From a virus (Duplodnaviria > Heunggongvirae > Uroviricota > Caudoviricetes): 6,563 nucleotides of DNA. The stretch covers positions 1 through 6,563 of the IMG/VR virus record IMGVR_UViG_2579778702_000004. One strand, 5' to 3'. Position 1 is the stretch's first letter. Every line of letters starts with the position of its first letter. The notes below the pieces were generated by a model. It was given only the letters and a program-made list of their open reading frames with translations, was not told the DNA's origin and ran no database searches. Positions 2,971 through 3,057 of the stretch are shown here, piece after piece. The position numbers and the translations under genes were made by a program.

Positions 2971-3057
2971 CTAACAGTCCGGCGTTTTCTTTTTCAGCAA
3001 CGGGAAAGCAATAACCACCACACCCGCCACCAGCACACCGTCAGCCAGCACTGACAT
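2971..3057 (-). CDS. Candidate 28-aa small hydrophobic (single-TM-like) peptide; unverified
   Basis: ATG at 3055-3057 to TAG at 2971-2973, translated by hand as MSVLADGVLVAGVVVIAFPLLKKKTPDC: a hydrophobic stretch followed by KKK, like small membrane peptides or type I toxins. No convincing Shine-Dalgarno (only GGA 4 nt upstream), and the sequence is GC-rich and contains a Chi octamer, so it may be a chance ORF. Confidence 0.2.
   Translation of the reverse strand: MSVLADGVLVAGVVVIAFPLLKKKTPDC

Follow-up and report, generated by a model that had tools for sequence, protein, structure and literature searches.

A 28-codon open reading frame (ORF) on the minus strand of a 6,563-nt stretch of Caudoviricetes DNA (positions 1 to 6,563 of IMG/VR record IMGVR_UViG_2579778702_000004; hereafter the window) raises the question of whether it is a gene in its own right. 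The earlier note, made from the letters alone, had taken it for a possible ORF for a hydrophobic peptide, resembling small membrane proteins and type I toxins. The hand translation behind that proposal is the same as the product in the ORF list, and the hydrophobic stretch followed by a lysine cluster was borne out by hydropathy analysis (Kyte-Doolittle 15-residue mean up to 2.7, then KKK). The ORF is not a self-contained small gene, however: it forms the back (3′) half of a longer gene that is read in the same frame and has a disrupted 5′ half. We conclude that it is most likely a pseudogene relic of a DUF3927/TciB-like gene.

2971..3057, minus strand: 28-codon ORF plus stop, ATG start, from the ORF list; product MSVLADGVLVAGVVVIAFPLLKKKTPDC

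Given that the window contains 104 ORFs of at least 20 aa, a length of 28 codons alone does not stand above chance. The ORF is raised above chance by its homology to Pfam family PF13064 (DUF3927), which matches the 28-aa peptide at 58.1 bits (cut-off 25; E = 8.6e-16). The alignment is restricted to profile positions 26-53 of 53, i.e., the C-terminal half, and the match to phrog_1470, labeled 'TciB-like', spans positions 27-51 of 54 (E = 1.4e-9). What the ORF contains, as an alignment with members of 54-57 aa shows, is the second hydrophobic segment and the KKK tail of DUF3927; the first segment is missing, and ATG 3057 is an internal Met conserved in the family. The earlier note had named, as a finding that would speak against it, a fragment of a larger gene in another frame. 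A fragment of a larger gene is indeed what we found, but the larger gene lies in the same frame. The RefSeq entry WP_000114358.1, named 'DUF3927 family protein', is identical to the 28-aa peptide, and the genome that carries it is identical to the window across 2582-4722. The same peptide (P0029) is recorded on at least 1000 contigs. NCBIfam has no specific model for it, its sequence was not found in literature text, and DUF3927 is hardly mentioned in the literature; a paper on IsrK/orf45 was found to be unrelated. The ORF, the DUF3927 family and the adjoining small RNA (sRNA) gene STnc100 are already in public annotation. New here is the recognition that the proteins of 28 aa and 43 aa filed under the DUF3927 name are truncated fragments lacking their partner, and that their annotation is inconsistent.

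The database search returned two length classes of DUF3927 proteins, one of 28 aa (or 43 aa) and the other of 53-57 aa. Intact members of the family are 50-57 aa long and have two hydrophobic segments joined by a DF(S/T)S(R/K)xM loop; the long forms read MTVKMRLAVVALLLFLVVMVVMVDF-SSRIM-SVLADGVLVAGVVVVAFPLLKKKASGD, the two flanking sequences being the hydrophobic segments. A gene for a TerB-domain protein (PF05099) adjoins the intact DUF3927 gene in 16 of 16 loci from E. coli and other Enterobacterales. In all ten long-form loci fetched from E. coli, the DUF3927 gene has a GTG start that overlaps the stop codon of a 143-aa TerB-domain gene (pair coordinates 3573-4004 for TerB and 4001-4174 for DUF3927), and the pair occupies the same slot as the ORF does in the window. 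The six intact loci from other genera, taken from one genome per species (Franconibacter, Pantoea, an Enterobacterales and two metagenome bins), all carry the pair as well, with a DUF3927 gene of 50-54 aa. Across these loci the DUF3927 start lies at the TerB stop or within 4 nt of it, and overlaps are 1-4 nt. The MSVLADG motif is invariant in intact proteins across genera, while the synonymous sites within it are 50-70% diverged.

The same order is found for tciA/tciB in phage P1, which gave the PHROG its name. The names tciA, tciB and tciC in phage P1 rest on homology, and these genes are dispensable for lytic growth (PMC10695390). Adjacency of DUF3927 to tellurite-colicin resistance genes is also known from phage-plasmids (PMC9600943), and TerB is a listed conserved neighbor of prophage Pas sRNAs (bioRxiv 10.64898/2026.05.13.724894). 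Because stop and start overlap and adjacency to TerB is strict, the small DUF3927 protein may be the membrane partner of the TerB-domain protein. Such a protein would have no role without TerB, which fits the loss of expression signals in the window described below.

Lesions in the window's copy were counted from an alignment with two intact loci (L007 and L008). Two stretches upstream of the ORF record them.

3058..3115, minus strand: degenerate 5′ part of the DUF3927 gene, from the alignment with L007 and L008 and from a frame and distance calculation

3112..3130, minus strand: 19-nt relic of the 3′ end of a TerB (TciA-like) gene, TCTGGATTATCACCTGTTA in the window vs TCTGGAGAATCACCTGTGA in intact loci

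The ancestral DUF3927 start codon at 3115-3113 reads GTT in the window and GTG in intact loci, and the Shine-Dalgarno (SD) sequence has changed from GGAG to GATT. The distance from this start to the internal ATG is 58 nt, compared with 78 or 87 nt in intact loci, so the ancestral frame is broken; read from the former start it gives V-TVKSYCLLFL and ends at TGA 3082-3080, after 11 codons. The former TerB stop codon TGA is now TTA, and the body of the TerB gene is absent from the window, with a phrog_2873 gene in its place. All 53 relic copies that were checked have GTT at the ancestral start, which argues that the lesions are ancestral to the relic class. No TerB homolog was found at any relic locus that carries the phrog_2873 gene; the sole exception among loci with that gene is L170, which is itself intact. 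Identity to intact alleles rises sharply again 13 nt before ATG 3057, which reflects either fast decay of the 5′ part or homogenization of the 3′ part by recombination with intact alleles.

These features place the ORF close to a known family and set it apart from it. Like intact DUF3927 genes (PF13064, phrog_1470 and P1 tciB), it is homologous over the second hydrophobic segment and basic tail and occupies the same position in lambdoid prophages; unlike them, it lacks the first segment, the ancestral start, the SD, the frame and the upstream TerB/TciA gene. A similar comparison holds for cassettes that pair TerB with a small membrane partner, such as P1 tciA-tciB. In the window, the last 19 nt of a TerB gene survive just before the DUF3927 start position, which shows that the window descends from a TerB-DUF3927 cassette; it differs from such cassettes in having a phrog_2873 gene instead of the TerB gene body. 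The suggestion that the ORF encodes a small membrane protein thus stands in part: the sequence descends from a genuine phage membrane-protein family, DUF3927, but is not a self-contained gene.

We next consider the translation signals, which the earlier note had called weak. Calculated pairing with the anti-SD sequence agrees: it amounts to -3.3 kcal/mol before ATG 3057, against a window-wide background of -3.2 +/- 2.3 kcal/mol. By comparison, the intact DUF3927 start has -6.4 kcal/mol plus translational coupling, and the start of the esterase gene in the window has -10.3 kcal/mol. The internal Met persists as a residue in Pantoea and Franconibacter but is not preceded by an SD there (0 and -0.4), which indicates that internal initiation is not a feature of the family. 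A longer, 43-aa form, sometimes annotated in RefSeq, requires GTG at 3102, where pairing is again at background level (-3.0 kcal/mol).

3100..3102, minus strand: GTT codon; GTG in 105 of 110 other relic copies, the window having the minority state

Because this codon reads GTT, only ATG 3057 can open the ORF in the window. Two copies have a TAA within the 43-aa extension. As a separate observation, annotation of near-identical DNA as 28 aa or 43 aa tracks the GTT/GTG difference and sometimes disregards it (RefSeq records H1 and H4).

The wider neighborhood is that of a late-region cargo slot. On the minus strand, gene order begins with a DUF968 gene, a Q antiterminator gene (PF06530), a 96-aa ORF and an N6/N4 DNA methylase gene, and continues with three tRNA genes, the phrog_2873 gene (hereafter the cargo gene), the small ORF, STnc100, an esterase gene and a class II holin gene.

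3602..3851, minus strand: three tRNA genes (CAT, Arg-TCG, Arg-TCT), supported by ARAGORN, Rfam and synteny with F004

3138..3464, minus strand: phrog_2873 'cargo' gene; E = 3.9e-70, residues 11-118 vs profile positions 1-108

2715..2905, minus strand: STnc100 sRNA gene (RF02076); Rfam 138 bits (gathering 47), E = 2.6e-31, model positions 1-206 of 206

As in Stx phages, the tRNA trio bounds the slot on its left side. In the Stx2 phage F004 the order is three tRNA genes, stx2A, stx2B, STnc100 and yjhS; since this matches the window, the small ORF and its upstream neighbor occupy the Shiga toxin slot. The likeness extends to the flanks of Stx-phage slots in general (tRNAs, stx2AB, STnc100, nanS-p/yjhS esterase and holin), which appear in the same order in the window; the difference is that in the window the cargo gene and the DUF3927 relic stand where Stx phages have the stx genes. 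The sequence that Stx2 phages have in common with the window starts only at about 2934 and continues downstream, which assigns the ORF to the exchangeable cassette and leaves it outside the conserved STnc100/esterase block.

The cargo gene is AT-rich. Its longest ORF (118 aa) runs from GTG 3494, and its true start is likely ATG 3464 (108 aa). The 118-aa ORF ends at 3138, which agrees with the 80-nt gap to ATG 3057 that had been reported. The cargo ORF is unannotated in RefSeq records that carry it (NZ_OZ040035.1 and NZ_CP027355.1), and its product has no Pfam, NCBIfam or PADLOC match. PADLOC likewise has no defense-system model matching TerB, DUF3927, the cargo protein or the 28-aa peptide. 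In one locus (L170), a phrog_2873 homolog (62% identical), a TerB gene and an intact DUF3927 gene stand in a row, and the alignment between the cargo genes of the window and L170 extends across the stop codons and breaks off immediately beyond them.

STnc100 is a known multi-copy prophage sRNA that is expressed in EHEC (PMC5331693) and is related to PasD (bioRxiv 10.64898/2026.05.13.724894). It lies 66 nt downstream of the ORF, is co-directional and does not overlap it. The minus-strand terminator proposed downstream of the ORF was recovered by a terminator scan as a hairpin at 2745-2726 with a T-rich tail, and it is the 3′ end of STnc100. The arrangement proposed for co-transcription also held: the ORF and the cargo gene share a strand, and the ORF precedes the terminator, within an exchangeable slot. 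In other strains (L002 and L176), iraM is inserted on the plus strand between STnc100 and the esterase gene.

Several further observations concern the surroundings of the slot. A plus-strand terminator-like hairpin at 2686-2707 (GCCCGCG...CGCGGGC, then TTTTTTT) stands back-to-back with the STnc100 terminator and has no obvious plus-strand gene to terminate. The esterase-like gene (DUF1737 + SASA + DUF6645; 641-2492, minus strand) is split into overlapping ORFs at 1716-2492 and 641-1738, and alignment with the intact gene of L001 places two separate 1-nt gaps near 1775 and 1751; the split gene is either a pseudogene or the product of sequencing error. The tRNA with the CAT anticodon (3776-3851, minus strand) is called tRNA-Met by ARAGORN and tRNA-Ile (ileX-type, lysidine-modified reading) in RefSeq. 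The 96-aa ORF between the Q antiterminator and methylase genes (5102-5392, minus strand) has no Pfam match, and the region 5400-5440 has several indels relative to L001.

Relic copies of the ORF are common. Of 5426 complete E. coli genomes, 1185 cover the relic junction (3030-3125) in full, usually with a single copy each; the intact 57-aa-type junction has full coverage in 106. The integrity of relic copies, which are about 99% alike, was assessed in 175 sequences taken from contigs of viral and metagenomic origin, in part through scans whose anchors lay entirely outside the ORF; extraction demanded near-full BLAST coverage, so that copies with large deletions would be missed. The ORF is open in 173 of the 175, one of the others having ATG changed to ATA and one an in-frame 3-nt deletion; neither a frameshift nor a premature stop was found in the 175 copies. 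Destructive changes make up 4-6% of point mutations, and among approximately 15 mutations about 0.7-0.9 would be expected, with one seen. Intactness of the ORF in all copies, considered as a sign of function, was rejected because fewer than one destructive mutation is expected. Frameshifts in relatives, which the earlier note had listed as speaking against the ORF, are present at low frequency, both as rare frameshifted proteins on record (P0021 and P0023) and in the class-3 copies described below.

With the one recombinant removed, substitutions in the 173 relic copies comprise eight synonymous and six non-synonymous changes (S 8 : N 6; omega 0.36-0.40), with P = 0.047-0.074 when computed at the observed transition bias of 12:2. 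The larger set that includes the recombinant L133 gives S 9 : N 11, and the control frames in the full set give 8:11 and 4:16. The omega value is in the same range as the uncorrected pN/pS of intact genes. An early signal of purifying selection (53-110 copies, S 8 : N 4, P ~0.005-0.015) was not relied on; it weakened because anchors were placed outside the ORF and one recombinant was removed. Four of the six non-synonymous changes (M1I, L4P, G7C and G7S) sit in the MSVLADG motif. The commonest relic variant is also non-synonymous (V16A, 33 of 173 copies), and a proline variant (P0051) is widespread in Shigella and recorded on at least 1000 contigs. Segregating sites per 100 nt, counted in the 53 copies checked for the GTT at the ancestral start, number 9.5 in the ORF, 4.1 in the cargo gene and 1.5 in the spacer between the ORF and STnc100.

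Other decayed or recombinant forms were also seen. A second, independent decayed class ('class 3') has a 38-aa ORF, MVALLLFLVVMVDFSSRIMSVLSDGVLVAGVWLLLSRC, that is truncated at its 5′ end, lacks 1 nt within the second segment and sits directly after the tRNA genes. It is carried by 11 viral contigs (including L015, L028 and L029) and by L171 from E. albertii, and in phage vB_EcoS-813R8 (L176, 2460-2576) it is annotated as 'TciB'. A Pseudescherichia sp. metagenome-assembled genome (L174, 3022-3126) has an N-terminally truncated 34-aa DUF3927 ORF, MSINFISKLMSVLADGVLAAGAVILLWPLPQTTR, with no TerB gene upstream, and is a case of recurrent survival of the second segment alone. The metagenome contig L133 (SKEK01003745.1) combines the relic-type 5′ junction with the 'ASGD' tail of the intact 57-aa allele. 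This recombinant shows that relic and intact copies exchange sequence within the ORF, and such recombination with intact alleles can import synonymous-biased variation into relic copies. Substitution, polymorphism and independent-decay data together fit relaxed constraint in a young relic, and leave room for weak residual constraint on the ORF.

Some of these data could be read differently, namely as traces of a relic that is still translated from ATG 3057 (or from GTG 3102 in most other copies) into a stand-alone single-pass membrane peptide. Such a peptide could, for instance, disturb the TerB-DUF3927 modules of phages that reside in the same cell or enter it, or take the place of those modules. 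The near-universal openness of the ORF (173/175), an omega of ~0.4 that leans toward constraint (8:6, as against 8:11 and 4:16 in the control frames) and the prevalence of 1185/5426 all count for such a peptide and against a relic, as does the independent retention of the second segment alone as an ORF by the E. coli relic and, with its own N-terminal truncation, by Pseudescherichia; the hydrophobic segment and KKK would be compatible with membrane insertion. The selection test, however, is not significant at a realistic transition bias and is confounded by recombination, and the ORF is more polymorphic than its neighbors. Residues invariant in the family have undergone radical changes, including the helix proline of P0051 on its at least 1000 contigs, and the class-3 relic is frameshifted in this very segment. 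Neither start has an SD above background; the start of the 43-aa form is absent in the window, and its extension contains a stop in two copies. We consider continued translation unlikely. That the truncated gene has been re-used, with the 28-aa (mostly 43-aa) peptide from the internal Met acting alone in the membrane and hence persisting in about one fifth of E. coli genomes, appears quite unlikely; if true, the peptide could, for example, engage TerB-DUF3927 modules from superinfecting phages or from other prophages as a decoy or as a dominant-negative partner.

The polymorphism data bear on another reading as well, in which the sequence owes its retention to a role as nucleic acid, namely as leader or precursor of STnc100, and looks coding for historical reasons only. 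The ORF lies directly upstream of a full-length sRNA of an expressed family (PMC5331693), the late transcript must run through it, and the spacer between them is the least polymorphic part of the region (1.5 segregating sites per 100 nt). The ORF itself, by contrast, is comparatively polymorphic and unstructured. STnc100 does not need it, since Stx2 phages carry STnc100 and their homology to the window begins only at about 2934. A leader role thus strikes us as very unlikely. The proximity of an sRNA gene, 66 nt downstream, also invites the idea of a type I toxin-antitoxin pair, with the ORF as a toxin silenced by an antisense or nearby small RNA. In size, single hydrophobic helix and charged end, the peptide is similar to Hok, Ldr, TisB, Ibs, ShoB and Zor, but it lacks an antisense or overlapping RNA partner, a family match and a regulatory leader, and it originated as a fragment of a two-segment protein. 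STnc100, encoded on the same strand, has no overlap with the ORF. Consensus scans, which an unconventional antisense RNA could escape, gave neither an Rfam match (E up to 1) on the strand opposite the ORF at 2971-3057 nor a promoter-like site on the plus strand at 2900-3130. RNA structure around the ORF is not unusual (z = -0.25), and Pfam returned DUF3927 only for the peptide, with no match to Hok, Ldr, TisB, Ibs, ShoB or similar toxin families. The intact form of the peptide is, moreover, a conserved partner of TerB and not of an RNA. With structure, Rfam and promoter evidence all negative and STnc100 co-directional, the hydrophobicity of the peptide is what is left of the toxin likeness drawn in the earlier note; we rejected the idea, which is extremely improbable.

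We therefore favor the pseudogene relic. Its homology, truncation, lesions, missing partner and background-level ribosome-binding signal can be read directly from the DNA; we infer the order of events and that the relic lacks translation and function. The ancestor would have been a two-gene cassette of lambdoid prophages, located at the late-region cargo position that stx2AB occupies in Stx phages and consisting of a gene for a 143-aa TerB-domain protein followed by one for a two-segment DUF3927 protein of 50-57 aa, with an overlapping stop/start GTGA as in P1 tciA/tciB. In the lineage of the window, TerB was probably lost via a deletion next to the phrog_2873 gene, which would have spared the last 19 nt of the gene. 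Loss of TerB in one deletion from a cargo-TerB-DUF3927 cassette is plausible and compatible with L170; it falls short of proof because L170 is distant and its TerB only 43% identical. The DUF3927 gene may then have lost its SD, its GTG start and its frame across the first segment, in whatever order. Its second half would still be open only because the conserved internal Met provides an ATG and the lineage is young. The relic is most likely not translated to a useful level and has no function of its own, and it would spread with a very successful prophage module beside STnc100.

If so, the relic status of these copies matters mainly for annotation. Thousands of RefSeq entries name the 28-aa or 43-aa ORF a 'DUF3927 family protein' with no note of its truncation or of its missing partner, and which of the two lengths is given to near-identical DNA varies from record to record. 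If such copies were treated as relics, screens would not list them among candidate small membrane proteins or toxins. The intact TerB-DUF3927 pair, which occupies the Shiga toxin slot and is conserved across Enterobacterales, would be a more worthwhile experimental target than the relic.
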